Position numbers and translations under genes: made by a program
Source of the DNA: Acidobacteriota bacterium
GTDB taxonomy: Bacteria; Acidobacteriota; Vicinamibacteria; Vicinamibacterales; UBA2999
Assembly: GCA_021731095.1 (NCBI GenBank)
Contig: JAKFYA010000236.1
Location: forward strand, 1-36,512
DNA: 36,512 nucleotides
Direction: 5' to 3'
Part shown: positions 1,051-34,590 of the stretch, piece after piece
Numbering within the stretch: the stretch's first letter is position 1
Layout of the letters: each line of letters begins with the position of its first letter
The notes under the pieces: model-generated
The model's database searches: none
What the model was told of the DNA's origin: nothing
Seen by the model: the letters and a program-made list of their open reading frames with translations, nothing else

Positions 1051-2394
1051 GTGCCGATTCTGGCACTGGCCGCGCTGGGTGGTGCGTACTCCTCCTCGGT
1101 GCTCCCCCTCCTGGCGGCGGCCGCTGTCCTCTTCTTCGCAGGCGGCGGTGCCATCGCTTCCACCCGGGAGACCCGCCTCCTCGACGTCGCCCTCGTGCTG
1201 CTGGTTGTGGCCATGGGCCTGCAGATCCTTCCCCTCCCCTGGTCGTTCATCTCGTCGCTTTCGCCTCGCACGTTCGAGGTCATGGCCTCGCTGACGATGC
1301 TTGATCCGTCAGCCCCGGGTACGCTGAGCATCCGACCCGCCGTCAGTCGCGAGACCCTGATCTCGGCACTCTCTGTGGTGCTGGTGTTCTGGGGAGCGCG
1401 TGGGGTCTTTGACAACGGTGGCCTGCGGCCGGCGGTCAGGCTGCTGTCCTGGGCCGGCCTGGTCGCCGCGCTGGTCGGTCTGGCCCAGCGCGCCACCTCG
1501 CCCATGTTGCTGCTCTGGACCTGGAAGCCGCTGGACCCTGGCGGCAGACCATTCGGCCCATTCGTCAACAGGAATCACTTCGCCTTCTGGTTGCTGCTGG
1601 CGGGAGCTGTGGCGGCGGGCGCCGCCATTTCCCACATCCACGCGCATGGCCTGCTGCGTCGGCGCGCGCTGCGCGACCGGTTCGTGGACCTGCTCGCCGA
1701 CGGTACGGGCGTGATGCTCCTGGGGTCGGCCGCGCTCATGTGGCTGACACTGATTGCCTCAACCTCCAGGGGCGCCATTCTCGGCATGGCCGTGACCTGC
1801 CTGATTGCGCTGGTCATGGCGGGCCGGCGCATCCATTCACGCGCGGCCTTCCGGACCATGATCGTCCTGGTCGTGGCCCTGCTGTCCTGGGGGGTCTGGG
1901 CCAACATTCAGGCGCTGGCCAGCCGGCTGGATCTGAACAGTGGAGACGTCCCGCGCGTTGCCGTCTGGACAGACACCCTGCCGGTCATCTCGGCATTCGC
2001 AGTGACAGGAACTGGCGCCGGCACCTTCGCCGACGCGATGGTCCGCTTCCAGCAACACGAACGTCGCGTGCTGTTCAGCGAGGCTCAGAGCGAGTATCTG
2101 CAGTTGATGGCAGAAGGCGGGCTGCTGCTGGCAGTTCCGGTGCTGGTCGCCCTGCTGGCCTGGTTGCGGCTGTCTCTGATGCGCCTGAAAGCCAGCAGTC
2201 CCGGCTCGACCTGGATCAGACTGGGCGCGCTGGCAGGGCTGTCTGGAGCCGCCGTGCAGTGCCTCTGGGATTCGGCGCTGCGCATGCCGGCCAACGCGAT
2301 GCTGGTGGCCCTGCTCGCGGCCATCGCCGTCCACCAGCGCACGGATGGCGCCGGTTCAGCTGAGGGAAACGGGCGCGGCCCCGAACTCCACTGA
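1051..2394 (+). CDS. O-antigen ligase (Wzy_C/WaaL-like) family membrane protein
   Basis: Many hydrophobic helices; motifs GPFVNRNHFA, STSRGAILG, R..VW, GTGAGTF, AQSEYLQLMAEGG. Exact start uncertain. Confidence 0.85.
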   Translation: MPILALAALGGAYSSSVLPLLAAAAVLFFAGGGAIASTRETRLLDVALVLLVVAMGLQILPLPWSFISSLSPRTFEVMASLTMLDPSAPGTLSIRPAVSRETLISALSVVLVFWGARGVFDNGGLRPAVRLLSWAGLVAALVGLAQRATSPMLLLWTWKPLDPGGRPFGPFVNRNHFAFWLLLAGAVAAGAAISHIHAHGLLRRRALRDRFVDLLADGTGVMLLGSAALMWLTLIASTSRGAILGMAVTCLIALVMAGRRIHSRAAFRTMIVLVVALLSWGVWANIQALASRLDLNSGDVPRVAVWTDTLPVISAFAVTGTGAGTFADAMVRFQQHERRVLFSEAQSEYLQLMAEGGLLLAVPVLVALLAWLRLSLMRLKASSPGSTWIRLGALAGLSGAAVQCLWDSALRMPANAMLVALLAAIAVHQRTDGAGSAEGNGRGPELH

Positions 2395-3816
2395 GGCACA
2401 GGCCTGATAGAAGTCTGCCGGGATGCCGCGCGCCGGGCAGAACCGGTCCAGGAACCACGTCACCCGCTCGGCCAGCGCCGCTCCGGCTGGCCATGTCGGC
2501 ACCTGCTCCAGCCACGCGTCAAACACCTCTGACGGCCGTACGCCCTTCTCGCGACAGAGCATCCGGAAGGTCTTGCGATCGCCGATCTCCCGGAGGGCCG
2601 CTTCCAGTCTGAACCCATAGGCCACCTCATCTGGCGACATGGACAGATGGGACTCCACGAAGTAGGGCGGCTCGTGACTGAAACGCAGTCCCATCGCCTC
2701 CGCCTTGCGCCAGAGCTCGGTGCCTGGCAGGACCATCAGGGGAAACACGGCCAGTTCTGGCGGGTCCAGCGTCACGGCAAAGTCGAGCGAGCGGTGGAAC
2801 GAGGCGACGGTCTCTCCTGGAAGTCCATAGATCAGCTGGAGTTCGAAGGCGAGGCCATGCGCCTTCAGGAAGCCGATGCCATCGAGAAACTTCTGCATCT
2901 TCAGGCGGCGTTCGACCGTCGCCAGCACGTCCGCGTCCGTCGTCTGCAGGCCGACTTCCAGAAACGACACGTTGGCCTCGCGCATCAGGGCGGCAAGTTC
3001 GTCATCGATGAACTCGGCCCACACCTCCGCATGCACGGCAATGCGGCGGGGGTTGTGCGCGGCAATGAGCCGGCAAATCGCCTTCGCCCGGTCGGCGTAG
3101 AGATTGAACACCGGGTCCATGAGGTACAGCTCGTCGATATCGCGTTGCAGCCAGAACAGGATCTCGCGCTCCACGCGCGCCAGATCGAACCGCCGGTTCC
3201 GGACCGACAGGTCCTTGTTGTAGAAGCAGAAGTTGCAGCGGAACACGCATCCGCGTTGCGTCTCGATGCACACCACGCGACCAGGCCGGTCAGCATAGGC
3301 GTCGGTATGCGGGGACGGCAGCTCGTTGATGTCCCGCAGGAGTGGGGCCTCAGCATTCTCGATGATGCGGTCGGCCTGGCGATACGCGATGCCAGCCACC
3401 TCGTCGAGTGTGCGTCCGTCCCGCGCGCAGGCCACGACCTCCGCGAACGGCAGCTCGCCCTCACTGCACACCACCACGTCGACGAACGGGTTCGCGGTGA
3501 GCACGGCGGCCGCCACGGGTCCCACCTCAGGCCCGCCAAGGACCAGCAGCACATCGGGCCGAGCCGCCCGGATCAATCTGGCCGCGGCCATCAAGGTCCG
3601 CACATTCCAGACATAGCAGGACAGGCCCACCACGGCCGGCCCGGTAGACAGGATGCGGGCAGCGATGACCTCAGGTGCCGCCTCCTGGTCGAACTCCGCC
3701 AGGTCAATCTCACTGAGGGCATGCCCCGCTCGCTCCACGAGATAGGCCCTGAGGTACAGCAGCGCCAGCGGTATGAAGGACGGGTTCTTGTGAACGGTCG
3801 CCAGGCAGATCTTCAC
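2356..3816 (-). CDS. Cobalamin (B12)-binding radical SAM enzyme, candidate class B C-methyltransferase (486 aa)
   Basis: N-terminal B12-binding domain (PLALLYL, VVGLSCYVWN, LGGPEV, EGE), CxxxCxxC in TQRGCVFRCNFC, and IYGLPGET. GTG start at 3816 overlaps the upstream TGA (GTGA), so the ORF-track start at 3939 is probably too long. Confidence 0.9.
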   Translation of the reverse strand: MKICLATVHKNPSFIPLALLYLRAYLVERAGHALSEIDLAEFDQEAAPEVIAARILSTGPAVVGLSCYVWNVRTLMAAARLIRAARPDVLLVLGGPEVGPVAAAVLTANPFVDVVVCSEGELPFAEVVACARDGRTLDEVAGIAYRQADRIIENAEAPLLRDINELPSPHTDAYADRPGRVVCIETQRGCVFRCNFCFYNKDLSVRNRRFDLARVEREILFWLQRDIDELYLMDPVFNLYADRAKAICRLIAAHNPRRIAVHAEVWAEFIDDELAALMREANVSFLEVGLQTTDADVLATVERRLKMQKFLDGIGFLKAHGLAFELQLIYGLPGETVASFHRSLDFAVTLDPPELAVFPLMVLPGTELWRKAEAMGLRFSHEPPYFVESHLSMSPDEVAYGFRLEAALREIGDRKTFRMLCREKGVRPSEVFDAWLEQVPTWPAGAALAERVTWFLDRFCPARGIPADFYQACASVEFGAAPVSLS

Positions 3817-4796
3817 AGGCCGTTTCCCTCGAGACCGATCCCGTGCGCGGACGGCTCGGCTCCCCAGAAGGTGGACTGGTCCGTGGCCGCATGGCGAAGG
3901 CCACCCTGGGCATCCTCGATGCTGACCCGCCACCGCCAATGGATGCTGTCAAACCCGGTCATCTGCAGGCGGACGACATCCCCTGTCCCGACCGGGACAG
4001 CCGCAGGTAGCGGAAAGAAACCCTGCCGGTACTGCGTGCTGTTGTCAGACGGGCTGTTGCCGATGACGATGCCGTCTTCAAGGGTCGCCGAGAACCAGAT
4101 AGCCACCCCGTGCAACGAGCCGGCCCGTTCCATCGCCCACCGCACCTCCGCGTCGAATCCGTACCGGGCAAGCGCGTCGAGCCTGAATGTGGCCACCGCC
4201 ACAGGGCCGGCGAGCGACTCCGCCGGTGCCAACCAGACGGGATACCAGTTGTGGGTAGCCATGCCGCGGAAGCAGGACATGTCAACGCCTTCTCGCGGCG
4301 CATCCCAGCAGGTCACCGCGTCCGCATGCAGGCGCGCGGACTCGACCGGCGCTGCGTGGAGAACCACCAGGTCCGGCATGACCCGCCCGCCCGGGTTGAG
4401 AAAGCGCGTCACGGCGTCGCTGACGCACCGGAGGCCGTCCTTCTGAAGTCCGCAACAGTCGTACGTGTCCGTGACGATAAGGTCCACAGGCTCTGGTAGT
4501 GTGACCTGATCGGACGCCCCCTGGACCAGCACGACACGGTCTGCCACACCGTTCGCCTCGGCCAGCCGACGCACGAGGCCTGCCATGGGATGCGCCTCGA
4601 CCGCATAGACACGCCTGGCGCCTGCGCGCGCCGCCAGGACCGACAACACGCCACTCCCCGCCCCAAGGTCGAGCACGACCATGCCAGGCACGACAGCACT
4701 GGCCAGGGCTGTCGCGTAGCGCGTCAGTCGCTCACCGGTGCCGGCGAGGAGAAACCGCTGCTGCTGGAGAAACTCCGCCGACTCGGGGAATTGCAT
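3813..4796 (-). CDS. SAM-dependent methyltransferase with protein arginine methyltransferase (PRMT)-like architecture
   Basis: Motif I VVLDLGAGSGVLS, RVYAVEA, EPVDLIVTD, RFLNPGG, then a PRMT beta-barrel-like region LHGVAIWFSATL...SPSDNSTQYRQ at the THW-loop position. Confidence 0.85.
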   Translation of the reverse strand: MQFPESAEFLQQQRFLLAGTGERLTRYATALASAVVPGMVVLDLGAGSGVLSVLAARAGARRVYAVEAHPMAGLVRRLAEANGVADRVVLVQGASDQVTLPEPVDLIVTDTYDCCGLQKDGLRCVSDAVTRFLNPGGRVMPDLVVLHAAPVESARLHADAVTCWDAPREGVDMSCFRGMATHNWYPVWLAPAESLAGPVAVATFRLDALARYGFDAEVRWAMERAGSLHGVAIWFSATLEDGIVIGNSPSDNSTQYRQGFFPLPAAVPVGTGDVVRLQMTGFDSIHWRWRVSIEDAQGGLRHAATDQSTFWGAEPSAHGIGLEGNGL

Positions 4797-4808
4797 GGTG
4801 GCGAGGTC

Positions 4809-5435
4809 CTACAGGCCGTCGCGAAGGATGTCGAGAAAGGCGGGCTCGGACCGGAACCACCCTACGAAGGCCAGTTTCTCGACGGCGCCCGCGATGGGCG
4901 TGACCTGATGCTCAAGGGACTCATCGATACGGAACAGGAGTGCATCTCCTTCCCCGGTGTTGGCCACGTCATCAAGCACGGATCCAGACATCGCACTTCG
5001 CAGGCGGAACACGCCGCCCTCGTACGGGTGGTCTCCCAGATTGATGCTCATGCCGATCAAGCGGTGGTCCACGGCATCGTTGTGCCAGGACACATGGTGC
5101 GCGCCGCCCGGCAACATCCGGTACACCCGTCCCGTGAAGCAGCCAATGGCGCCGCAACCGGTGAGGTTCTGGATGCCGGCATAGACGACAGGGTCGTTCA
5201 CGAGAAAATGCAGGAGACTCACGGTGCCGTCGGCCTCGAGACACTGCTCGGTTCCGAGCCCCTCATGGTCCCGCTCGAGGAAGGTCCCCTGGTCCAGTCG
5301 CTGACGTATCGTCAGGCACAAGTCTGGCGACAGCACACCAGGTACCACCGCGCAGTTCGTGCGGGCAAACTGGTCGCGAACGCTGGACAGCTCATCAACA
5401 GGCCAGAACAGCCGAGACGTCAACGGCCCGGTCAT
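4809..5435 (-). CDS. Fe(II)/2-oxoglutarate oxygenase, prolyl-4-hydroxylase-like family, copy 2 (208 aa)
   Basis: WHND (HxD), INL...YEGG.F, GDALLF, EHQV (distal His), KLAFVGWF. ATG at 5435 is 2 nt after the upstream stop. Confidence 0.85.
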   Translation of the reverse strand: MTGPLTSRLFWPVDELSSVRDQFARTNCAVVPGVLSPDLCLTIRQRLDQGTFLERDHEGLGTEQCLEADGTVSLLHFLVNDPVVYAGIQNLTGCGAIGCFTGRVYRMLPGGAHHVSWHNDAVDHRLIGMSINLGDHPYEGGVFRLRSAMSGSVLDDVANTGEGDALLFRIDESLEHQVTPIAGAVEKLAFVGWFRSEPAFLDILRDGL

Positions 5436-5437
5436 TG

Positions 5438-6109
5438 TCAAACCCCCGCCCTGGCGCGAGCCAGGCCGACTTCCTCGGACCCAAACTCTTCGAGCAGTGA
5501 GACGAGAGACAGATCCGATACGAACCACCCTGCGAAGGTGGTACGCGGGACAGTGCCTGTGACCTCCGTGGCCCGATGCTCAAGGCCAGAGGCAATGCGG
5601 AACAGGACCGCATCTCCAAGGCCGGTATTCGCGATATCACACAGCAATCGCTGTCGCGGATCATCCAACAACTGGAAGTGCCCGCCTTCGTAGATGTCGA
5701 CGCTGAGGTTGAGGCTCACGCCAATGCGGCGCCCCTGCACGTTGTCCGAGTGCCACGAATCAAAGTGTCCGGCTCCCGGGACAAACCTGAACACACGCCC
5801 ACGAAAGCCTGACAGCGGCTCACAGCCGGTCAGTTCCTCGACGAGACGCAGCAACGCCGGGTCGTTGAAGGCGAAGTGCAGCAGGCTCAGGGCCGGATTC
5901 GGCATCATGGCGTGATCCGCCGCGATGTCGTGATGCTTCTCGTCAAAGAACGCCGACTCCGTCACATGCCTGAGCGCAAACGCCAACAGGTCGTCAGACA
6001 GCACCTGGCGAAGGTGCACGTAACGGTGTTCCGAAAACTGTGCTGACAGCGTGCGTCGTTCAGAGTCCGGCAACGGCGCAGCCAGGCCGTGTGGTGTCAG
6101 TTGCAGCAT
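5438..6109 (-). CDS. Fe(II)/2-oxoglutarate oxygenase, prolyl-4-hydroxylase-like family, copy 1 (223 aa)
   Basis: WHSD, LNL...YEGGHF, GDAVLF, EHRA, RTTFAGWF. ATG at 6109 overlaps the end of the kinase gene; a TTG at 6118 is an alternative start. Confidence 0.87.
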   Translation of the reverse strand: MLQLTPHGLAAPLPDSERRTLSAQFSEHRYVHLRQVLSDDLLAFALRHVTESAFFDEKHHDIAADHAMMPNPALSLLHFAFNDPALLRLVEELTGCEPLSGFRGRVFRFVPGAGHFDSWHSDNVQGRRIGVSLNLSVDIYEGGHFQLLDDPRQRLLCDIANTGLGDAVLFRIASGLEHRATEVTGTVPRTTFAGWFVSDLSLVSLLEEFGSEEVGLARARAGV

Positions 6110-7116
6110 GGGGGGCAAGTAGACAGGTCGGACAGGACTGCGTCACGCACCGTCGCAAGGAGGGGAAGCCGTCGAGGATAGGACAACCGCCTGACCGGTA
6201 TGCTCCCCGCCAGGTTCGTGACAAAGGCAAACTGCCGGGACAGACGTTCTGCGGTGGCCACGCGCCCATTGAAGGTATTGGCAATCAGCGCCAGGCACGC
6301 CTGGCGCAATGGCAAGTGGCGGATCCGAACCTGCGCATGGGCTTGCGCACGAGCCTCTGAACGACGCGCTTCGCCGATGACATAAATGGCCCGAAGCGGT
6401 ACAGCCGTCAGCGCCTGCTCACCATCCACCATGGGCATGGCCAGCTTGGGGGCCAGCAAGGGCATCGTGATGCCGGCCGGACGCCCCTGTCGCAATCGGG
6501 TCGCCATGCGGCGCATGAGCTTGATGCGTGGTGGCCCCAGGTGGGCCATCAGGGCTGTACCCTGGCGGGTGACGACCAGCTGGTCATCAGTGACCAGGTG
6601 ATACCCCGCCTGCACGAACGCAGCAGCCAGGCTGGATTTGCCGCGCCCTGATGGACCGAGGAACGCCACGCCCTGCCCGTTGATGGACACGACGCTTGCA
6701 TGAAGCGGTTCGAGACCCTGCTGGACCAAGGCGTAAGAGAGTGCGGGTCCGAGCATAAGGGCTTCGAACAGTTCCAGACCTGTCCGTCCCCCACGACGCC
6801 CAATGATGCGCGCGCCATCCCCGGTGACCAGGAACTCGATGGAGCGCCCCCAACGGAGATAGGACCCGCCATCATCAAGGGCGGCCCGTTCGAACCAGGA
6901 GGAGTGACGGGTGCGCGGCAGGAGGGCCGCAGAGGCAAACAGGCCATCATGGACAGATGTCGTCCCATCTTCAAGGGAGACGTCCCAGGACGGGGCGTAT
7001 GCGGATGACACGGGAGCAAACGGCAGGCGCCACGCGCTCGACAGGCGAACTGAAAAGAGATCGTATAGGTAGCGAGGCCCCTGGCCTGTGCCTCCCACCG
7101 CTGCGACCGGGGACAT
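6097..7116 (-). CDS. HPr kinase-like P-loop kinase, putative lasso-peptide kinase
   Basis: LHASVV...AFLGPSGRGKSSLAA...LVTDD, the His / Walker A / DD signature of HPrK-like kinases. ATG overlaps the precursor stop (TGATG). Confidence 0.88.
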   Translation of the reverse strand: MSPVAAVGGTGQGPRYLYDLFSVRLSSAWRLPFAPVSSAYAPSWDVSLEDGTTSVHDGLFASAALLPRTRHSSWFERAALDDGGSYLRWGRSIEFLVTGDGARIIGRRGGRTGLELFEALMLGPALSYALVQQGLEPLHASVVSINGQGVAFLGPSGRGKSSLAAAFVQAGYHLVTDDQLVVTRQGTALMAHLGPPRIKLMRRMATRLRQGRPAGITMPLLAPKLAMPMVDGEQALTAVPLRAIYVIGEARRSEARAQAHAQVRIRHLPLRQACLALIANTFNGRVATAERLSRQFAFVTNLAGSIPVRRLSYPRRLPLLATVRDAVLSDLSTCPPCCN

Positions 7117-7280
7117 CAGGACTTGGTGGTCTTCCGGATCCCGTCGCTCTTCTTGCCGCCCTTTGCCAGCGCCAGATGGCGCAGGTCTCCGTAGACCGTC
7201 AGCTTCGGCGTCCTGTAGGCCTTGCGCGACGTCTCGCCCTGGTCTCTCGATTCTGAATCAGACGATGACACGTTCTTCAT
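7116..7280 (-). CDS. Lasso peptide precursor, 54 aa: MKNVSSSDSESRDQGETSRKAYRTPKLTVYGDLRHLALAKGGKKSDGIRKTTKS
   Basis: Manually translated (below the 60-aa ORF cutoff). Leader motif YRTPKLTVYGDL fits YxxPxLxxxG. ATG overlaps the cyclase stop (ATGA), its TGA overlaps the kinase ATG, and AGGAG lies 8 nt upstream. It fills the gap exactly. Confidence 0.92.
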   Translation of the reverse strand: MKNVSSSDSESRDQGETSRKAYRTPKLTVYGDLRHLALAKGGKKSDGIRKTTKS

Positions 7281-9217
7281 GACCTGCTCTCCTGCCTGCT
7301 AGGTGAACCGCGCCCGACTGTCGACATCGGACCAAAGAACTGCTGCAACCAGACTTCCAGCGCCAGCACATCCGTGAGTCCCCGGCTCGCGTCGAACGTG
7401 TCGTTCGCCAGTGCCGCATGGGCCTCACGCAGGGCCCGGTCCGCTCCGGCCCGGACATAGCCTCGCTGCACCGCTTCGCCCGTCGCCGCCAGCCGCGAGA
7501 CGATCCGATTATAGTCGCGGGACACACCGTCATTCACCAGCGACGTGAAGCTGACTTTGGTGCGCCTGGACGCAATCGCCTCTGGCAGCACACCACGCAG
7601 ACTTTCCCGGAGCAGCGCCTTGGGCACCCCGCCAGCGCACAGCACGTCACCGGGAATAGCCATCAGGAAGGCGACCAGGTCCCGGTCCAGGAACGGGAAC
7701 GCGTGCTCGAGTCCTTCGATAGCCCCGGCCTTGTTGTGCCACTCCAGGCAGAACACGGCGTACCGGGACCTGGCCTCCCGGTAGAGACTGGCGCCGTGGG
7801 CCGTGAATCCGGCCGGCACCCGGACAGGCGGGCGCTCGGCGCTCCGGCGAAACGCGTCGGTGTACCAGCCTCGGACATCGCGCCGTGCCGCCAGACGCTG
7901 ACGCGCGCGGCGAAGGCGGCGCAACACCGCCATCGGCAGGTGTCGCACGACCAGCCCTCTCAGGAGTCGCGTGGTGAAGTAGGAGGCATCCGTGACGCTC
8001 AGCCACTCACCAAAGCCCCGCGCCTGCCGCCAGGCCTCGCGCCAGGCGCCCTGTTCGACCAGGTCCAGCAGATAACCATCATCTGCCAGGAACTGGTCGC
8101 CCCAGTCGCCCGACAGCAACACCCGGACGCCCTTGGACCTCACAAACCGGTTGAACGCCTGGTCGCTGGTCCACTCCATATCGAGGGATGGCACCTCGAC
8201 GTGCCAGACCCCCCGGTCCACCTCATCGACCATGCCCAACTGCGGATGCGGGAAGCGATGGGACTGGAGGCCGGTAGCGACCTCGACCGCTCTGAGAAAC
8301 GCTTCCTCGTCAGCCTTCGACCCTGGTGGCGGCGTATAGGTGACGCCAACCGGGGACTGGGCATGGCCGCGCCCCTGGTGGCGCAGGTGCTCCGCCACGC
8401 AGAAGATCGAGGACGAGTCCACGCCACCACTGAGCGACACGCCGACCGGCGCTGCGCTGCGCAGGCGACGCGACACGGCCTGCTCAAAATGTTCGCGAAA
8501 GGCCTCGGCGTACGCGCCGGGCGACGCAAGCCTGATGCGTGCGCCGGGATCGAAGTCCCAATACCGGCGTGTCCGTGCCTCGCGGCCGCGCACCACGACC
8601 TGATGGCCTGGCAACACGCTGAAGACCTGGTCGAACACTGTCAGGCCCTGCGTGTCCTCGGACATCAGGGCATTGAAGTAGAAGTCTGCGATGCATGCGT
8701 CGCACGGTGCGACGTGCGCCTCCGGGTGTGCCAGCAGGGCTTTCACTTCGGTGCCGAACAGTAGGTGCGTCGGCCCCTGCTGGTAGTAGAGGGGTCGTAC
8801 TCCCATGGCATCGCGAGCAAGGCAGAGCATGCGTGTCGCGGTCTGGTAGGCCGCAAGGGCGAAGTCGCCCAGGAGGTAGTCGGGAGCCGCCTCGCCCCAT
8901 CGCGCGTAGGCCGACAGCGCCAGGTTCTCGTCTGGCGTGTCCGCGCGAAGATGGTGGTCGCCCAGCCTCGCGAGCAGGTCGTCACGGTTGTCGAGTCGGC
9001 CATCAAAGGCGATGACCCAGCGATCGTCCCGGCAGACCTGGGCCAACGCTGGCGCCTCAGCGTCCCCGGGAGCCCAGTCGCGTACGGCACACCCGAACGA
9101 CGCATCCCGGAAATGCCGTTCGACGCCACGGTGAGCCATGGCCGCAGACATCGCCCGCAGTTCCGGTGCCCCGGCCAGACGTTCGTCGAAATTGAGGACG
9201 CCGCAGATGCCGCTCAC
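7277..9217 (-). CDS. Lasso cyclase (C protein), asparagine synthetase-like macrolactam synthetase (646 aa)
   Basis: Starts GTG-SGICG, with Ser in place of the catalytic Cys of AsnB MCGI. Also DGRLDNR, GDFA, ARDAMGVRPLYY, ATP-binding SLSGGVDSS, SGDWGDQ, FPFLDRDLV, KALLR. The ORF-track start at 9373 would overlap the B1 gene. Confidence 0.9.
   Translation of the reverse strand: MSGICGVLNFDERLAGAPELRAMSAAMAHRGVERHFRDASFGCAVRDWAPGDAEAPALAQVCRDDRWVIAFDGRLDNRDDLLARLGDHHLRADTPDENLALSAYARWGEAAPDYLLGDFALAAYQTATRMLCLARDAMGVRPLYYQQGPTHLLFGTEVKALLAHPEAHVAPCDACIADFYFNALMSEDTQGLTVFDQVFSVLPGHQVVVRGREARTRRYWDFDPGARIRLASPGAYAEAFREHFEQAVSRRLRSAAPVGVSLSGGVDSSSIFCVAEHLRHQGRGHAQSPVGVTYTPPPGSKADEEAFLRAVEVATGLQSHRFPHPQLGMVDEVDRGVWHVEVPSLDMEWTSDQAFNRFVRSKGVRVLLSGDWGDQFLADDGYLLDLVEQGAWREAWRQARGFGEWLSVTDASYFTTRLLRGLVVRHLPMAVLRRLRRARQRLAARRDVRGWYTDAFRRSAERPPVRVPAGFTAHGASLYREARSRYAVFCLEWHNKAGAIEGLEHAFPFLDRDLVAFLMAIPGDVLCAGGVPKALLRESLRGVLPEAIASRRTKVSFTSLVNDGVSRDYNRIVSRLAATGEAVQRGYVRAGADRALREAHAALANDTFDASRGLTDVLALEVWLQQFFGPMSTVGRGSPSRQESRS
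7289..7293 (-). promoter_or_regulatory. Shine-Dalgarno site (AGGAG) for the precursor gene
   Basis: Minus strand reads gcAGGAGagcaggtcATG, with an 8-nt spacer. Confidence 0.7.
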
Positions 9218-9233
9218 AGGTAGACTGATCCTA
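9218..9233. promoter_or_regulatory. Possible bidirectional, leaderless-type promoter between cyclase and B1
   Basis: Only 15 nt separate the divergent start codons. TAGACT (9221-9226, +) lies 6 nt before ATG 9233; TAGGAT (9233-9228, -) lies 10 nt before GTG 9217. Both fit TAnnnT. Confidence 0.35.
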
Positions 9234-9532
9234 TGACGAAAGTAACCCTGTCCGATGCGGTCAGGCCGGGGGCCAACGTCCTGTTCCGCGAGCTTGAAGG
9301 CGAAGGCATTCTCTTGAGCCTCGAGAGCGGAAAGTACTTCGGCCTCGACGCGGTCGGCACGCGGATCTGGCAACTGCTCGGCGCCGGTCCGTCACTCACC
9401 GGCGTCTGCGAGACGCTCGCCGCGGAATTCGATGTGGAGCGCGCCACCATCGAGGCCGACCTGCTGGCCCTGGTCGCGGAACTCTCGTCCCACGGACTCG
9501 TGCTGGTGGCGGAGCACGCCCCGTCGGCATGA
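9233..9532 (+). CDS. PqqD-family RiPP recognition element (lasso B1 protein)
   Basis: 99 aa; RELEGEGILLSLESGKYFGLDAVGTRIWQLL...LAAEFDVE...ADLLALVAELSSHGLV is a typical PqqD/RRE pattern. Confidence 0.93.
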   Translation: MTKVTLSDAVRPGANVLFRELEGEGILLSLESGKYFGLDAVGTRIWQLLGAGPSLTGVCETLAAEFDVERATIEADLLALVAELSSHGLVLVAEHAPSA

Positions 9533-9993
9533 TGGCCACCGGCGAGGCGTGGCTCGAACGCGTCGCCTGGGTTCGACAGGAGTGGCCGCTGATCGGCGAG
9601 GCGATGCTGGCCGCACTGGTGGTGGAGACGGGCCTCCGCGCCACCTCGCATCCCCGCCTGTGGCACTGGGCCGGGGTTGTCCCTCGCGACATGGCCTCCC
9701 GGCCAGACCCGGCGCTGCTCTGGGCCATCCTCCGCGCCAGCTACTGGGCATGCCTGCTGCTGCCGGTGCGTGGAACCTGCCTCCGTGAAAGCCTGGTGGC
9801 CGCGCGCCTGCTGTCGCGCCGCGGTCACCCCGTCACCGTGCAGGTGGGCGTCCGCAAGGCCGGTCCCCGTCTGGACTCCCATGCCTGGCTCGAAGATGGC
9901 GATGGACGCGCGCTCACCGATCCCCTTGCGGGGTACGCCCCTCTGATCGCCGACACGCATGACCGAACAGCTCTGCCGGATCCTGCGCGGTAA
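9529..9993 (+). CDS. Lasso leader peptidase (B2, transglutaminase-like cysteine protease)
   Basis: TCLRESL (catalytic Cys), VQVGV, SHAWLE (His). ATGA overlap with the B1 stop. Confidence 0.92.
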   Translation: MMATGEAWLERVAWVRQEWPLIGEAMLAALVVETGLRATSHPRLWHWAGVVPRDMASRPDPALLWAILRASYWACLLLPVRGTCLRESLVAARLLSRRGHPVTVQVGVRKAGPRLDSHAWLEDGDGRALTDPLAGYAPLIADTHDRTALPDPAR

Positions 9994-11110
9994 CCCGGTC
10001 GACTGGCCACCAGACGCCGCCGGTGCCGAGACCTTGCAGCGGGAGGCCTATGAGCATGGCGTCCATACCCTGGTCGCGGCACGGCTGTCGAATCCGTCGT
10101 ATGCCGACTGCCCGATCTGGGTCCGGCAACCGTTCGCGCGTGAACGCGTGGACGAGGCCGCTGAAGAGCAACTGGTACGCCAGTCGATCCGGTCAGTCAT
10201 CGCCGCGTGCGCCAGTGCGGGCCTGCACCCGCTCATCTTCAAGGGTGCCGCCCTCGCCTTCACCCACTATGACGACCCGAGCGACCGTCCCTATGTGGAT
10301 GTCGACCTTCTCGTCCGACCGGGCGAGGCGCGCCTGGCGGCACAGGTGCTCGAATCGCTGGGCTACCAGGCCGCCGTCAGCGTGACCGGCGCGCTGCTGG
10401 CGGATGCCCCGGATGCGACCACCATCGATCGGTATGCGCCCAGCTCGCAGGTCCCGTTCACGAAGCGTGATGCCCGGGGAACGCCGCTCGAGATCGACCT
10501 GCACTGGCGCCCCACAATTCCCCAGGTGTTTGCCCAGGTGTTCGACCTGGATGCGTTGCACGCCGACTCGGTCGCCGTGCCGGCCCTGGGTCCGCAGGCG
10601 CGCGCGTTTGGACCCGTTCATGCGCTGGTGCTGGCCTGCCTGCATCGCCTCGCCCACCACCACGGCAGCGACCGGCTGATCTGGCTGTACGACCTGCACC
10701 TGCTGGGGTCACGTCTCACGACGGGTCAGGTCACAGCGCTACTCGAACTGGCGCGTGCGCATCAGGTGGCCGGGGTCTGCCTGGATGGACTGACCCTGGC
10801 CAGGCAGGCCTTCCAGAGCCCGTTCCCGGACGCACTCATCGAAGGGCTCCGCGAGGCGGCCGCTGCCAGTGACGAGCCGTCCGCCATGTATCTGCATCAT
10901 CAGGTTCGCCAGATGGACGTGCTGCGCGCAGACCTCGCGGCCCAGCCCAACCTCTCCGCGCGCATCCGCCTGTTGCGCGAACACCTCTTTCCACCGCCTG
11001 CCTATCTGCGCCAGCGTTACGGCGCACGCGCGTCCCTCTGGCTGCCCTGGCTGTATGTCCGGCGTGCGGTGTCCGGTGCACGCCGGTGGATGACCTCGCC
11101 ACGCCCCTGA
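9959..11110 (+). CDS. Nucleotidyltransferase family protein (NTP_transf_5-like)
   Basis: FKGAALA..Y.....R...DVDLLV, EIDLHW, RLIWLYDL. Confidence 0.88.
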   Translation: MTEQLCRILRGNPVDWPPDAAGAETLQREAYEHGVHTLVAARLSNPSYADCPIWVRQPFARERVDEAAEEQLVRQSIRSVIAACASAGLHPLIFKGAALAFTHYDDPSDRPYVDVDLLVRPGEARLAAQVLESLGYQAAVSVTGALLADAPDATTIDRYAPSSQVPFTKRDARGTPLEIDLHWRPTIPQVFAQVFDLDALHADSVAVPALGPQARAFGPVHALVLACLHRLAHHHGSDRLIWLYDLHLLGSRLTTGQVTALLELARAHQVAGVCLDGLTLARQAFQSPFPDALIEGLREAAAASDEPSAMYLHHQVRQMDVLRADLAAQPNLSARIRLLREHLFPPPAYLRQRYGARASLWLPWLYVRRAVSGARRWMTSPRP

Positions 11111-11117
11111 CAACACA

Positions 11118-11166
11118 AAGGGGATGCCGATGGCATCCCCTTCATGACGGCGGCTCTTCAGCCGCC
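11118..11166. terminator. Two tandem hairpins between convergent genes, probable (bidirectional) terminator
   Basis: AAGGGGATGCC-gat-GGCATCCCCTT (11118-11142, perfect 11-bp stem, followed on the - strand by a T-rich tract) and GGCGGCT-cttc-AGCCGCC (11149-11166). Confidence 0.7.
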
Positions 11167-11184
11167 ACATCCCCCGGACCCGCG

Positions 11185-12345
11185 TCAGCTCAGCATGCGC
11201 CTGAAGAGCAGGGTTCGCGCCGGCTGGTGGCGGAACAACGCCAGAATCAGATCCCGATGGCGATTGAAGCGCGCCGTCTGTCGCACGATCGGCATGATGC
11301 CGTTGGTATTCGCCAGCCTGAAGAGGGCATCCATTTCGCCGTCACTGAGCTTCTGCGCCAGCATGCGCAGCGCCAGCTGCGTCCGGAACTCGGGAATCAG
11401 TTCCTTCCGCCAGCCCGCTTCATACACAGACAGGGCGGACGCATCCAGCCGGTCCCGGTGCAGCGCGTCGCGCAACACCTCGGCGGCCATCGCACCCGTC
11501 GTCATGCTGTAGTAGATGCCGCCCCCTGTGGTTGGCTTGACCAGCCCTGCGGCGTCCCCGATGGCGACCACACGATCGGCATAGGTCCGGCGGATCGCCC
11601 CGAGCGGCAACAGTCTGCGGCGCGGCGATGCCGCGATCGTGCCTGCCACGCCCCAGGACGGGCCGATTCTCTCCATCAACCGGCGAAACGGGCCGGCGGC
11701 GTCGCCGTCGCACATCAGGCCGATGCGTACGTGCGGTCCGTCGGGTCGCACCGTCGGCACAGCCCAGGCAAACCCCTGCGGGGCGACATCCAGACCGAAG
11801 TAGACCTCGACCTCGCCACTGCGACCCGCGGGCACTTCCATCTGGGCCGATGAGAGATACACCGACGGCAGACCCATGCCGAGCTGGCGCTGGAAGCTGT
11901 AATTGACCCCGCAGGCGAGCACGACCGCACGTCCCACGACCGGAGCCTGCCCCTCGATCCCGACCTCCACGGAGTGCTCGCCGTTCACCAGGCCCGTGGC
12001 GCGGGCTCCCCGGATGAGGGCGGCACCTGCGGCAACAGCTCTGGTGGCCAGCATCCCGTCGAACCGGACGCGGTCCACCACCACGGCTTCCAGGCGGTCG
12101 GGAGTCCACGAGAGCTCAAGCCCTCCGGGCGAATGAAATCGGACCGCCGGCAAGGGATTGAGCACGGCATCGCGCGGAAGCCCGAGCTCCTCGAACACCT
12201 CATCTCCCAGGATGCCGGTGCAATGCGGAGGCTGGCCTATCTCGGCGTGTTCCTCGAGGACAGCCACATCAAAGCCGTCACGCGCCAGCTTCGCGGCTGC
12301 GTGCAGGCCTCCCGGGCCGCCACCGATGATCACGACATCATGCAT
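11185..12345 (-). CDS. Geranylgeranyl reductase-family FAD-dependent oxidoreductase
   Basis: DVVIIGGGPGG, HCTG, VDRVRFD, GFAWAVP, IGDAAGLVKPTTGGGIYY. Confidence 0.88.
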   Translation of the reverse strand: MHDVVIIGGGPGGLHAAAKLARDGFDVAVLEEHAEIGQPPHCTGILGDEVFEELGLPRDAVLNPLPAVRFHSPGGLELSWTPDRLEAVVVDRVRFDGMLATRAVAAGAALIRGARATGLVNGEHSVEVGIEGQAPVVGRAVVLACGVNYSFQRQLGMGLPSVYLSSAQMEVPAGRSGEVEVYFGLDVAPQGFAWAVPTVRPDGPHVRIGLMCDGDAAGPFRRLMERIGPSWGVAGTIAASPRRRLLPLGAIRRTYADRVVAIGDAAGLVKPTTGGGIYYSMTTGAMAAEVLRDALHRDRLDASALSVYEAGWRKELIPEFRTQLALRMLAQKLSDGEMDALFRLANTNGIMPIVRQTARFNRHRDLILALFRHQPARTLLFRRMLS

Positions 12346-31643: not shown

Positions 31644-32831
31644 TTACCCCAACGTGAGGATGAGGGACGCCAGCACGCGCCGGCGGGTATATGCGAAAGC
31701 GGTGATCGACGAACGGCGATGAGCCCATTCGTAGGTGGCCGTGATGCGTGTGGTCCGCGAGGCCTGTACGCCGACGCCACCTCCGACGACCTCGTTGTCA
31801 TCCCGGCGCTTTGCCTGATTGCGGGACGGGACGCCCGGATAGTCGAGCGTCTGCAGCTGAGCATTGGCAAGGAGTTGCACAGGACCCAGCACACGCTGCT
31901 GAATGTCGACGCCGTAACCTTGCTGCAGGAAGTATGGCTGTTCCAGCGAGATGTTGGTATCGCGGTTGTAGCGCACTTGCACACGCGTGGTGCCAAACAG
32001 CGAGAACGACAGGTCCACGTCGGACGCGTATCCCTCGAAGGGCACCTGAGCCGGGCCGGTATCCAGCTTGTGGTACGCCACGGTGGCGCGACCGCTGATC
32101 ACCGCGTCAGGCGAGAACGACAGCCCGATGGTCGCCCGGGTGTCACGCAGGTTCCTGTCGGGATCGGCAAACCTGTCGCGGGACGCCATCCCGTCGATGG
32201 TCAGGATGGTAAGCGGCGTCACCTCGTACCTGGCGCCCACGCGGACGTTCTGGGCCTCGTGATTGAGCGAGCGCGAGAGCTCCAGCCCGCGGAACGTCTG
32301 TCCGGCGTCGTAGTCGATCTTCTCGTCGCCCACAGATGCCTGCAGGGACCCGCGCGGCGTGACCGCCCAGCTCAGGCCGACACTGCCTGTGAGTCCTCGG
32401 CGCTTCGACCGGAGGTCCACCTCAAAGCCCTGTCGCTCGCGCGCCCGCTCATATCCCCCGGACACGAACGGCGTCACGCGGGCCAGTGGCAGATCGATGC
32501 GGAGCGACGCGCGTCGATTGATGGAACGCTCGCCTTCGTACCGTTCGAAGTAGAGCGCATCGGCGCCCCCACTGACACTCAACCGGAAGTAGGGGGCCGG
32601 AAGCGTGGCGTCCACCCTGCCGGAGAACGTGCCCACCCTGTCTTCGCGCGGCCTGGCCGGGTCGTCGAACACGTTGCTGTCCAGACCGACGTCGCGCAAG
32701 GAGATCACGGGCTTCCAGGAAATAGGCCCCGTCTGCAGTCCGTCAGCAGTTGCCTGTGCCACCCCGGGCGTCGGTCGCGCCATGAGGATGGCAAAGGCGC
32801 AGAGGCTCACCCACCGCGTTGGCCGCATCAT
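31644..32831 (-). CDS. Outer-membrane beta-barrel protein associated with polysaccharide export
   Basis: Signal peptide, an N-terminal DSNVF motif, alternating amphipathic beta-strands throughout; directly upstream of the OPX gene. Confidence 0.75.
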   Translation of the reverse strand: MMRPTRWVSLCAFAILMARPTPGVAQATADGLQTGPISWKPVISLRDVGLDSNVFDDPARPREDRVGTFSGRVDATLPAPYFRLSVSGGADALYFERYEGERSINRRASLRIDLPLARVTPFVSGGYERARERQGFEVDLRSKRRGLTGSVGLSWAVTPRGSLQASVGDEKIDYDAGQTFRGLELSRSLNHEAQNVRVGARYEVTPLTILTIDGMASRDRFADPDRNLRDTRATIGLSFSPDAVISGRATVAYHKLDTGPAQVPFEGYASDVDLSFSLFGTTRVQVRYNRDTNISLEQPYFLQQGYGVDIQQRVLGPVQLLANAQLQTLDYPGVPSRNQAKRRDDNEVVGGGVGVQASRTTRITATYEWAHRRSSITAFAYTRRRVLASLILTLG

Positions 32832-32832
32832 C

Positions 32833-33420
32833 TCAGCGGACTCCCGCCTCTGGCGTGAAGTGACCATCCCCGTCAGGATCGATCTCGAGGAGGACCGTGC
32901 CATCGGCGTCGTAGGTCAGGCGGCGCGTGGCGTGCCCGACGTGCGCATCGTCGAGCAGGAGCTGTCGCAACACCCCGTGGTCGAACAGCTCCCACGCATC
33001 CATCTGACCGTCGCGATCCGTGTCCCGTTCCGTGCGCAGCAACTCGCCAGCCGTGTAGAACTCCCGCCGGTCAATCCGCCCATCGCGCTGCGTGGCAACC
33101 TCGACGCGCGTGTCCTGGCCGTCCTTGTAGATCCAGCTGTCCTCGACCCCGTCATTGGCCGTGGACGCCCCGAGCTTCGTCAGGGCGCCGCTCTCGTCGT
33201 AGTACTCCCACCGGTCGATGACCAGATCCTGGTTGGTGTCCCCCTCCAGCCGCACCGGCTTCCCATGCGCCATGAAGGTCCGGACATCGGTGGTCCCGTT
33301 GTGGTCGTAGTCGTAGTCGAGCCGCACCAGCTCATGGGTCTTCGGATCGTAGGTCGGCGTGACGTCTCGGGGCGCGGAACAGCCCCAGGACACCAGCATT
33401 GTCAGCAGCAACAGGCGCAT
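32833..33420 (-). CDS. Hypothetical lipoprotein with repeated Asp-rich Dx[DN]xDG-like motifs (195 aa)
   Basis: MRLLLLTMLVSWG-C lipobox-like signal; repeats DYDHNGTTD, DTNQDLVIDRWEYY, TANDGVEDSW, TQRDGRIDRREFY, DTDRDGQMDAWE, DPDGDG. Confidence 0.75.
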   Translation of the reverse strand: MRLLLLTMLVSWGCSAPRDVTPTYDPKTHELVRLDYDYDHNGTTDVRTFMAHGKPVRLEGDTNQDLVIDRWEYYDESGALTKLGASTANDGVEDSWIYKDGQDTRVEVATQRDGRIDRREFYTAGELLRTERDTDRDGQMDAWELFDHGVLRQLLLDDAHVGHATRRLTYDADGTVLLEIDPDGDGHFTPEAGVR

Positions 33421-33588
33421 CGGCACAGGAAGAGACAGCTTCGCCCTCTCAGTCACGGCGCGTGGGCGCATGGCTGTCGCGGGCCGGATGGGCCACGCAC
33501 CTCGGGGACTCTTCCTCAATATCGGCACGGTCTCCCCATCACGATACCAGTGGCCCAGCCCTCTGCCCACCCGCATGCCCCTCTGTTG

Positions 33589-33604
33589 GATCCGGATCCC
33601 GATC
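33589..33604. repeat. Three GATC sites at 6-bp period upstream of the Dam-family methylase
   Basis: GATCcgGATCccGATC at 33589, 33595 and 33601; I saw no other GATC in the 33421-33618 intergenic region. Confidence 0.8.
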
Positions 33605-33618
33605 CGATAAGGGTCCAT

Positions 33619-34590
33619 GTGAGTGTTCTCTGCACATTTCCGCACGCCGCCCGTCCCCTGCTGAAGTGGGCAGGCGGCAAGCGCCAGCTCCTTCCGGCCA
33701 TCCGCCCGTACTACCCCCAGTCGTTCGACCGCTACATTGAGCCCTTCTTCGGGAGCGGCGCGGTCTACTTCGACATGCTCGCGACCGGGCGACTGGACGG
33801 GCGTCGGGCCTGGCTGCTGGACGCCAATCCTGACCTGGTGGGGTGCTACCAGACGCTCCGGGACCGAACGGACGAGGTCATCGAGGAACTGGCCCGCCTG
33901 GAGCGGAGCCATCTGGCGCAGGGAGACGCGTTCTACTACGAGGTTCGGGACCTTCGCTTCAATCCCCGCCGGGCAGCCGCTCCTGGCGCCTACAGCCCGG
34001 ACCTGGCCGCCATGCTGATTTACCTCAACCGGACCGGCTTCAATGGCCTGTTCCGGCTCAATCGGCGTGGTGCGTTCAACGTTCCGGTGGGTCGGTACAC
34101 CAACCCGACCATCTGCGACCCAGCCCACCTCCGCCAGGTGGCGGCCGCCCTGGGCGATGGCCGGGTGCGATTCGAGGGGGGCTCATTCGAGGTGCCGCTG
34201 GCGGCGGCCGGCGCCGGGGACTTCGTCTACTGCGATCCGCCGTATGCCCCGCTCAGTACGACTGCCAGCTTTGCCAACTACACGGCAGCCGGGTTTGGGC
34301 CACGCGATCAGGAACGACTGTTCCACCTGGTGGTCAGTGCCGTCGAACGAGGCGCCTCGGTGGTGCTGTCCAACTCGAGCGCGCCTGAAATCGTGGACAT
34401 GTACGACTCGATCGAGGCCCGCCGCGCCGGTCTGGTGCTATCCCTGGTGCCCGCCCGCCGTGCCATCAACTCCCGGGCCGCGTCCCGTGGGACGGTCAAC
34501 GAAGTGCTCGTCACGACCCGGACGGCCCTGCCGGACGTGCGACCGACGCCCGCCGTCGCAGCATTGCGCCGGGCCCGCAAGAGCGCCTGA
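33619..34590 (+). CDS. dam: Dam-family (D12 class) DNA adenine methyltransferase, orphan
   Basis: PLLKWAGGKRQLL, YIEPFFGSGAV, YLNRTGFNGLFRLN..G.FNVP.G, catalytic FVYCDPPY, LSNS. Probable GTG start at 33619; the 661-aa ORF-track call is an in-frame extension antisense to real genes. Confidence 0.9.
   Translation: MSVLCTFPHAARPLLKWAGGKRQLLPAIRPYYPQSFDRYIEPFFGSGAVYFDMLATGRLDGRRAWLLDANPDLVGCYQTLRDRTDEVIEELARLERSHLAQGDAFYYEVRDLRFNPRRAAAPGAYSPDLAAMLIYLNRTGFNGLFRLNRRGAFNVPVGRYTNPTICDPAHLRQVAAALGDGRVRFEGGSFEVPLAAAGAGDFVYCDPPYAPLSTTASFANYTAAGFGPRDQERLFHLVVSAVERGASVVLSNSSAPEIVDMYDSIEARRAGLVLSLVPARRAINSRAASRGTVNEVLVTTRTALPDVRPTPAVAALRRARKSA

Follow-up and report, generated by a model that had tools for sequence, protein, structure and literature searches.

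A radical SAM enzyme of the cobalamin-dependent type encoded in a kinase-type lasso peptide operon of Vicinamibacterales: a candidate optional peptide C-methylase

Lasso peptide clusters of the kinase type are represented by those of paeninodin (PadeK) and pseudomycoidin (PsmK/PsmN), which contain an HprK-like kinase, a PF14907 nucleotidyltransferase (the family of PsmN), a split B1/B2 pair and a core peptide ending in Ser; PsmK and PsmN put a phosphate-linked sugar or nucleotide group on pseudomycoidin (2022 review PMC9266682, in the part of its text available to us). The lasso decorations named in the available parts of this review and of a 2024 methyltransferase review are phosphorylation, glycosylation on phosphate, C-terminal O-methylation, acetylation, hydroxylation, epimerisation, citrullination and aspartimide formation, none of which is described there as the product of a radical S-adenosylmethionine (SAM) enzyme. 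Likewise, no lasso peptide modified by a radical SAM enzyme that depends on B12 was found in the accessible text of the literature searched (including PMC9266682, PMC11285071, PMC10288494 and the preprint 10.1101/2024.12.31.630886), a scope that leaves aside the survey of Tietz et al. 2017, which may tabulate co-occurring genes. The present study concerns a gene for a cobalamin-type (class B) radical SAM enzyme, hereafter rSAM, at the end of a lasso operon in 36,512 nucleotides of DNA from an Acidobacteriota bacterium of the order Vicinamibacterales (assembly GCA_021731095.1, contig JAKFYA010000236.1; this whole stretch is referred to as the window), for which an original prediction had suggested a possible C-methylation of Ile, Thr, Lys or Arg in the lasso core. 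Based on the comparison of its sequence, modeled structure and genomic contexts, we assign a probability of roughly 0.55 to the reading that rSAM is a cobalamin-dependent peptide C-methylase that is optional in the tailoring of HprK-kinase-type lasso peptides and acts in cis or in trans; a functional connection of some sort with the lasso pathway is likely. The relatives suggest a carbon-methyl (or similar) decoration that would be new for lasso peptides.

The lasso set of the window is complete, with precursor, B1, B2 and cyclase all present (see Table 1). Seven tightly packed genes on the minus strand follow each other in the order cyclase, precursor, HprK-like kinase, two 2-oxoglutarate (2OG)-Fe(II) oxygenases, PRMT-like methylase and rSAM, with neighbours overlapping or at most 12 nt apart; rSAM is a member of the operon formed with the precursor, cyclase and leader-processing genes. 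The precursor reads MKNVSSSDSESRDQGETSRKAYRTPKLTVYGDLRHLALAKGGKKSDGIRKTTKS. As in the paeninodin and pseudomycoidin clusters, an HprK-like kinase, a PF14907 gene and a core with a C-terminal Ser occur together; in contrast, radical SAM, PRMT-like and 2OG oxygenase genes are present in the window and appear in neither of these clusters as described in the available part of PMC9266682. The lasso cluster of the window is of the kinase type known from paeninodin and pseudomycoidin, with three further kinds of tailoring genes added. The order of the organism also differs from those of the paeninodin and pseudomycoidin sources, the named relatives belonging to Vicinamibacterales according to their source names.

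The Pfam content of rSAM is restricted to PF02310 and PF04055, both matched above their cut-offs and well outside chance expectation (E 1e-16 to 1e-19); the profile search of the whole genome placed the B12-binding match at C3:3436-3777. The protein accordingly combines the N-terminal cobalamin-binding Rossmann domain and the radical SAM core with CxxxCxxC motif (C190/C194/C197) that characterize class B enzymes, as originally proposed, and the Rossmann domain is included in the fold match to CysS and TokK (see below). The GTG start codon (3816-3814) shares bases with the TGA stop codon (3815-3813) of the upstream gene 3813..4796, whose assignment as a methylase is borne out by its PRMT_C match (55.7 bits, cut-off 27), so that the predicted GTGA coupling of the two genes was recovered. 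This start is supported by the 19 other sequences of alignment A1, all of which begin at most three residues from the same alignment column; a longer, TTG-started open reading frame (ORF) from 3939 exists and is dispensable as start. Since the downstream neighbour, a Wzy_C-family gene, is convergent (overlapping the 3' end of rSAM by 39 bp), rSAM is indeed the last gene of the operon. A fused RiPP (peptide synthesized by the ribosome and then modified post-translationally) recognition element (RRE) had not been seen by the original prediction, and none was detected here: the Pfam search of rSAM gave no PF05402 match, and the C-terminal domain consists of five helices with neither sheet nor winged helix in the structural model (mean pLDDT 91; built on a 20-sequence alignment).

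The modeled fold of rSAM is closest to those of CysS (cystobactamid; PDB 9n1b-d) and TokK (asparenomycin carbapenem; PDB 7kdx/7kdy), two cobalamin radical SAM C-methylases with the same succession of B12 Rossmann domain, radical SAM barrel and helical C-terminus: in the Foldseek comparison all three domains were covered (CysS: TMq 0.85, E 1e-29; TokK: TMq 0.78), and both enzymes ranked ahead of TsrM, AprD4, MgmA and OxsB. They are also the top PDB sequence matches (TokK 113 bits, CysS 109 bits); however, their identity to rSAM amounts to only 20-23%, and rSAM is about 150-190 residues shorter. Whereas the substrates of CysS and TokK are pantetheine-linked small molecules (according to the PDB entry titles), rSAM is encoded in a RiPP operon. 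The top NCBIfam match was the KedN5 C-methylase subfamily NF033712 (168.3 bits; cut-off of 700 not reached), and the curated cut-offs were equally missed for the PhpK P-methylase TIGR04479 (109.9/600), HpnJ (95.9/577.6), BchE (95.7/481.35) and HpnR (65.5/650). Class B methylases of ribosomal peptides, the group that supplied the original prediction with its functional analogy and that includes the PoyB/PoyC type (TIGR03975), ApyD (NF050148) and TsrM (PDB 6wte), also combine B12-binding and radical SAM domains, but rSAM lies outside these families (TsrM-type TIGR04428: 26.7/500; TsrM: TMq 0.63). An RRE-free cobalamin radical SAM enzyme that C-methylates a polypeptide residue has parallels in the methyl-coenzyme M reductase methylases Mmp10 and MgmA/QCMT; the similarity is weak (MgmA, 9ccb: 48.2 bits, TMq 0.61; TIGR04014: 63.5/360), and their substrate is a large protein of methanogens. 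The closest 50%-identity cluster representative is 56% identical to rSAM (581 bits), the next full-length ones at most 45%; at E 1e-30 the whole lineage comprises 1,736 representatives. Judged from these sequence and model comparisons, rSAM appears to function like a cobalamin C-methylase yet to form a family of its own.

The chemistry of TokK and CysS is established and served as the source of the mechanism proposed for rSAM. By analogy, the [4Fe-4S] cluster bound by C190, C194 and C197 would cleave SAM to give a 5'-deoxyadenosyl radical, which would abstract hydrogen from an unactivated peptide carbon; methyl-cobalamin held in the N-terminal domain would then donate its methyl group to this carbon, and a second SAM would re-methylate the cobalamin. 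Since rSAM has no RRE and its gene lies mostly far from lasso genes (see below), the enzyme would find its substrate alone, via B1 or on the finished lasso.

Two collection scans yielded 111 loci, 108 of which contain an rSAM relative. Lasso genes occur at 23 of these 108 (the window aside), and rSAM directly abuts them in at least six arrangements: with B2 downstream (11 loci), with a 2OG oxygenase upstream on the same strand (three loci) or convergent (two loci), with an HprK-like kinase upstream (four loci), with the nucleotidyltransferase downstream (one locus) and, in the window only, with the PRMT-like gene upstream; at two further loci the lasso genes are 3.7-4.5 kb away. Because several of the lasso-bearing loci are near-duplicates, the arrangements and not the loci have to be regarded as the independent units. 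In an unbiased count over the loci with at least 1 kb on both sides of rSAM, a lasso gene was located within 1 kb in 9 of 47, and the lasso-adjacent members do not form one clade. A more distant relative, a B12-dependent radical SAM gene of 31% identity, is the final gene of an operon (L147:3049-11406) in which two radical SAM/SPASM genes, an M28-PDZ peptidase, a PqqD-like ORF of 86 aa and three HprK-related/ScmC-like genes also occur; the cassette resembles the SynChlorMet type and once more combines a peptide-type setting with kinase-like partners.

The association appears to extend to genomes in which rSAM and lasso genes are apart. rSAM is a single-copy gene in the genome of the window and a rare, non-core gene of its order (5 of 151 genomes); a housekeeping gene is ruled out by this frequency and by the phylum sample, where 4 of 401 genomes matched at E 1e-60 (three candidates scored per genome). 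Each of the five genomes with rSAM in the order sample had a B2 match (PF13471, above cut-off), compared with 81/151 overall, as did 21 of 22 further genomes reached through the loci; in the combined set of rSAM-bearing genomes it was found in 24 of 25, including 20 of the 21 in which rSAM is not adjacent to lasso genes. With the kinase of the window as query, HprK-like matches were obtained in 22 of the 25 rSAM-bearing genomes versus 50 of the 151 of the order sample, an enrichment to be read with the reservation that the rSAM-bearing genomes are mutually related, that some are bins of doubtful label and quality, and that the background was measured within the window's order. Among 20 lasso regions fetched from rSAM-bearing genomes, nine contained a legible cluster of the HprK type together with a same-family precursor; the other 11 comprised two with B1 and kinase only, two of another type and seven that were too short or unreadable.

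The island 2356-11110 lies within a polysaccharide locus, in a slot bounded by wzy and a flavin adenine dinucleotide (FAD)-dependent reductase-like gene, and the content of this slot varies among genomes of the same family: it is empty in L116; in L126 a nucleotidyltransferase, B1, cyclase, kinase and B2 are found there but neither rSAM nor PRMT nor oxygenase; and it contains B1, cyclase, PRMT, kinase and nucleotidyltransferase in L123, where an rSAM of 46-47% identity is found on another contig. In L110, a 40%-identical rSAM immediately follows the reductase gene of the same slot. rSAM has either arrived with the lasso island or been added to it; from the variation among L116, L126 and L123 it follows that the rSAM, PRMT and oxygenase genes behave like optional add-ons to an older lasso core at this site. 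The slot of L123 also contains, between kinase and nucleotidyltransferase, the gene of an 1874-aa cadherin-like/Big_9 repeat protein (L123:9831-15455, minus strand).

Shared features of the precursor family are the aromatic-xx-P-x-L motif in the leader, Thr at the second position ahead of the core (13 of 14 aligned sequences) and a ring of 8-9 residues that Asp or Glu closes, and Lys, Arg, Thr and Gly abound in the tails; the window precursor carries an Ala at the position two residues before its predicted core start. The precursors of the rSAM-bearing genomes were compared with those of 16 regions from rSAM-free genomes (14 readable). The comparison, made by reading the kinase-type clusters, revealed no core residue or motif that tracks rSAM and would point to the modified site. 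A complex prediction for rSAM and the window precursor, both entered as alignments, reached a score of 0.01 where 0.32 is the mark; made without controls, it speaks neither for nor against an interaction.

The proposal that rSAM C-methylates the lasso peptide, as put forward in the original prediction, is plausible and has gained comparative support: a class B enzyme is encoded in a complete lasso cluster, its best solved relatives CysS and TokK are C-methylases, and lasso genes adjoin it in several independent arrangements. From this we infer methyl transfer, a peptide substrate and a site of action within it. However, the lasso link, though it seems real, turned out to be looser than had been assumed, and several observations weigh against the proposal. 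The nearest characterised relatives are small-molecule and not RiPP methylases, the NCBIfam cut-offs of the latter being far from reached (TIGR03975: 79.7/281.85; ApyD: 78.9/750). In 38 of 47 loci with flanks of at least 1 kb, and in 22 of 23 with flanks of at least 4 kb, rSAM is not next to lasso genes, and the neighbours at these loci are unrelated and mutually different: the gene separates murG from murC in the cell-division (dcw) cluster (L021), stands between a flavin monooxygenase and pirin (L011), adjoins a phosphopantetheinyl transferase (PPTase) and a TonB receptor in L004 and folP and ftsH in L016, precedes a pyridoxal phosphate (PLP)-dependent Cys/Met enzyme (L124) and, in a peptide-export context without lasso genes, directly follows a C39-peptidase ABC (ATP-binding cassette) exporter and an HlyD-type gene (L049:6481-11488). 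No conserved non-lasso neighbour that would name a substrate emerged: neighbouring ORFs fall into clusters specific to a lineage, and different groups have different Pfam content. On the 73-member tree the lasso-adjacent members cluster, yet seven changes of state are needed; for 36 labelled rows at least five state changes are required, and a one-clade constraint on the 16 adjacent rows was rejected by the approximately unbiased (AU) test (p-AU 7e-62), the group having been defined by context after the first tree was known. In addition to the relatedness and restricted background mentioned for the genome-level counts, 3 of the 25 rSAM-bearing genomes are without an HprK-like match and one is without B2. 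The precursors add to these points: besides the absence of a distinguishing core residue, near-identical precursors exist in genomes with rSAM (L130, L146) and without it (L155). Finally, CobS (PF02654) was not found in the 81%-complete genome of the window; given five B12-binding domain matches above cut-off, which indicate that the genome uses B12, the cobalamin is, as far as the gene content tells, probably taken up and not made.

The alternatives to a peptide C-methylase differ in how far they detach rSAM from the lasso peptide. Within the lasso pathway, rSAM might methylate the phosphate-linked sugar or nucleotide group set by the HprK-like kinase and the PF14907 gene instead of a side chain, for which speak the presence of both genes and a Ser-ending core in the cluster, the frequency of HprK-like genes in rSAM-bearing genomes (22/25) with the kinase directly upstream of rSAM at four loci, the small-molecule substrates of the nearest characterised relatives and the position of the entire island inside a polysaccharide locus. 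This is nevertheless unlikely: tblastn detected no nucleotidyltransferase in the lasso regions L127, L129, L144 and L134 of rSAM-bearing genomes, none was found within 10 kb upstream of rSAM in L025, and Ser is not the final residue in most precursors of the family. That rSAM acts on the lasso peptide by another cobalamin-radical reaction (rearrangement, cross-link or epimerisation) is quite improbable; class B does include non-methylases, OxsB and AprD4 being among the structural and BchE among the NCBIfam matches, and no curated methylase cut-off was reached, but the best full-length matches are the methylases CysS, TokK and the KedN5 subfamily, and the sequence scores of OxsB (24.5 bits) and AprD4 (57.4 bits) are much lower.

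The very diverse contexts, the solitary position of most copies and the patchy distribution across phylum labels would also agree with a mobile accessory gene with a substrate of its own that repeatedly landed beside, or travelled with, accessory islands; moreover, lasso clusters are common in the order (81/151), for which reason co-occurrence at the genome level is a weak test. Such an unrelated gene is rather unlikely in view of the direct contact of rSAM with five kinds of lasso gene, seen in six or more gene orders, the translational coupling in the window and the B2 match in 20 of 21 genomes with a non-adjacent rSAM; chance adjacency within 1 kb, estimated at well under 1% for a cluster of about 10 kb in a genome of 4-5 Mb, compares with 9/47 observed. 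If, on the other hand, rSAM served self-protection by methylating what the lasso peptide targets in the cell, it might sit anywhere in the producer genome, as in the dcw cluster of three Gemmatimonadota-labelled genomes; intact solitary copies in genomes of producers, one of them placed between murG and murC, and the absence of an ABC exporter gene from the island 2356-11110 could be understood in this way. Such a role is highly improbable, as rSAM is missing from 45 of the order's 50 genomes with an HprK-like match, a pattern that a required immunity gene would not show, and we know of no class B radical SAM enzyme with a resistance role. The murG-murC insertion of the rSAM orthologue was read directly in L021 (8872-12929) and, for L018 and L022, from neighbour clusters shared with L021; the lasso cluster of these genomes is on another contig.

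Beyond the lasso context, the conserved unit might be the HprK-like kinase together with the rSAM lineage, and not rSAM with the lasso genes, forming an old two-enzyme module that acts on a phosphorylated residue; we regard this as rather improbable. Its reaction could possibly be a C-methylation, either at or next to phospho-Ser/Thr or on the group that the phosphate carries, and the module would have been borrowed by lasso clusters, by the SynChlorMet-like cassette of L147 and possibly by glycan operons; if true, this would be a post-translational chemistry without described precedent. As for the peptide C-methylase favored here, a cobalamin radical SAM step would bring carbon methylation or another radical reaction to the stable, engineerable lasso scaffold, and one precursor family with rSAM in cis, in trans or absent constitutes a concrete test panel. 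Because the gene is usually encoded far from the presumed cluster, genome-mining tools that rely on cluster boundaries would miss the candidate.

Table 1. Features of the lasso island and its flanks in the window (bits, score of the profile match).
Feature	Position	Strand	Basis and remarks
Class B (cobalamin-type) radical SAM gene (rSAM)	2356..3816	-	486 aa, GTG start, stop-free ORF
B12-binding Rossmann domain, residues 15-127	3436..3774	-	PF02310 60.7 bits (cut-off 32.1)
Radical SAM core, residues 184-347	2776..3267	-	PF04055 69.9 bits (cut-off 29.5)
CxxxCxxC [4Fe-4S] motif, C190/C194/C197	3226..3249	-	invariant in 20/20 sequences of alignment A1
All-helical C-terminal domain, residues 395-479, not an RRE	2380..2634	-	secondary structure of the model; no Pfam match
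GTGA start/stop overlap of PRMT-like gene and rSAM	3813..3816	-	sequence
PRMT-like SAM methyltransferase, 327 aa	3813..4796	-	PRMT_C 55.7 bits (cut-off 27); PrmA 37.7 bits
2OG-Fe(II) oxygenase, second copy	4809..5435	-	PF13640 34.2 bits; start ATG 5435 inferred, longest ORF from 5528
2OG-Fe(II) oxygenase, first copy	5438..6118	-	PF13640 33.4 bits
HprK-like kinase, lasso-tailoring kind	6097..7116	-	Hpr_kinase_C 36.3 bits (cut-off 33.3); weak HprK_rel_A/B and ScmC matches
Lasso precursor, 54 aa	7116..7280	-	leader aromatic-xx-P-x-L motif; core ends in Ser; overlaps cyclase stop (ATGA) and kinase start (TGATG)
Lasso cyclase (Asn-synthase type)	7277..9217	-	NF033535 316.7 bits (below cut-off 525); Asn_synthase 159 bits; start uncertain, GTG 9217 or upstream to TTG 9373
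B1 (PqqD-type RRE), divergent from cyclase	9233..9532	+	PF05402 68.2 bits
B2 leader peptidase (transglutaminase-like)	9529..9993	+	PF13471 58.7 bits
PF14907 nucleotidyltransferase	9959..11110	+	NTP_transf_5 120.2 bits
Flank: Wzy_C-family gene, polysaccharide locus	1051..2394	+	convergent with rSAM; synteny in relatives
Flank: FAD-dependent reductase-like gene, polysaccharide locus	11185..12345	-	adjoins wzy directly in L116

Some further features of the island deserve mention. The GTG candidate start of the cyclase is just 15 bp from the divergent ATG of B1 (9233), and the longest cyclase ORF would overlap B1 on the opposite strand. The two tandem 2OG-Fe(II) oxygenases are paralogues (4809-6118), the relatives showing a single oxygenase stretch at this place. 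Relatives of the PRMT-like gene were detected by tblastn in many kinase-type lasso clusters (L025, L071, L123, L129, L139, L140, L143, L144, L150 and L158); the core encoded in the L140 cluster is without Arg. A promoter and terminator scan of 2000-11400 gave no promoter-like site and three terminator-like sites, compared with 3.7 expected. Apart from the lasso island, the window contains on its plus strand a 661-aa ORF with a D12-class N6-adenine DNA methyltransferase domain (32605-34590), located amid polysaccharide export and glycosyltransferase genes.

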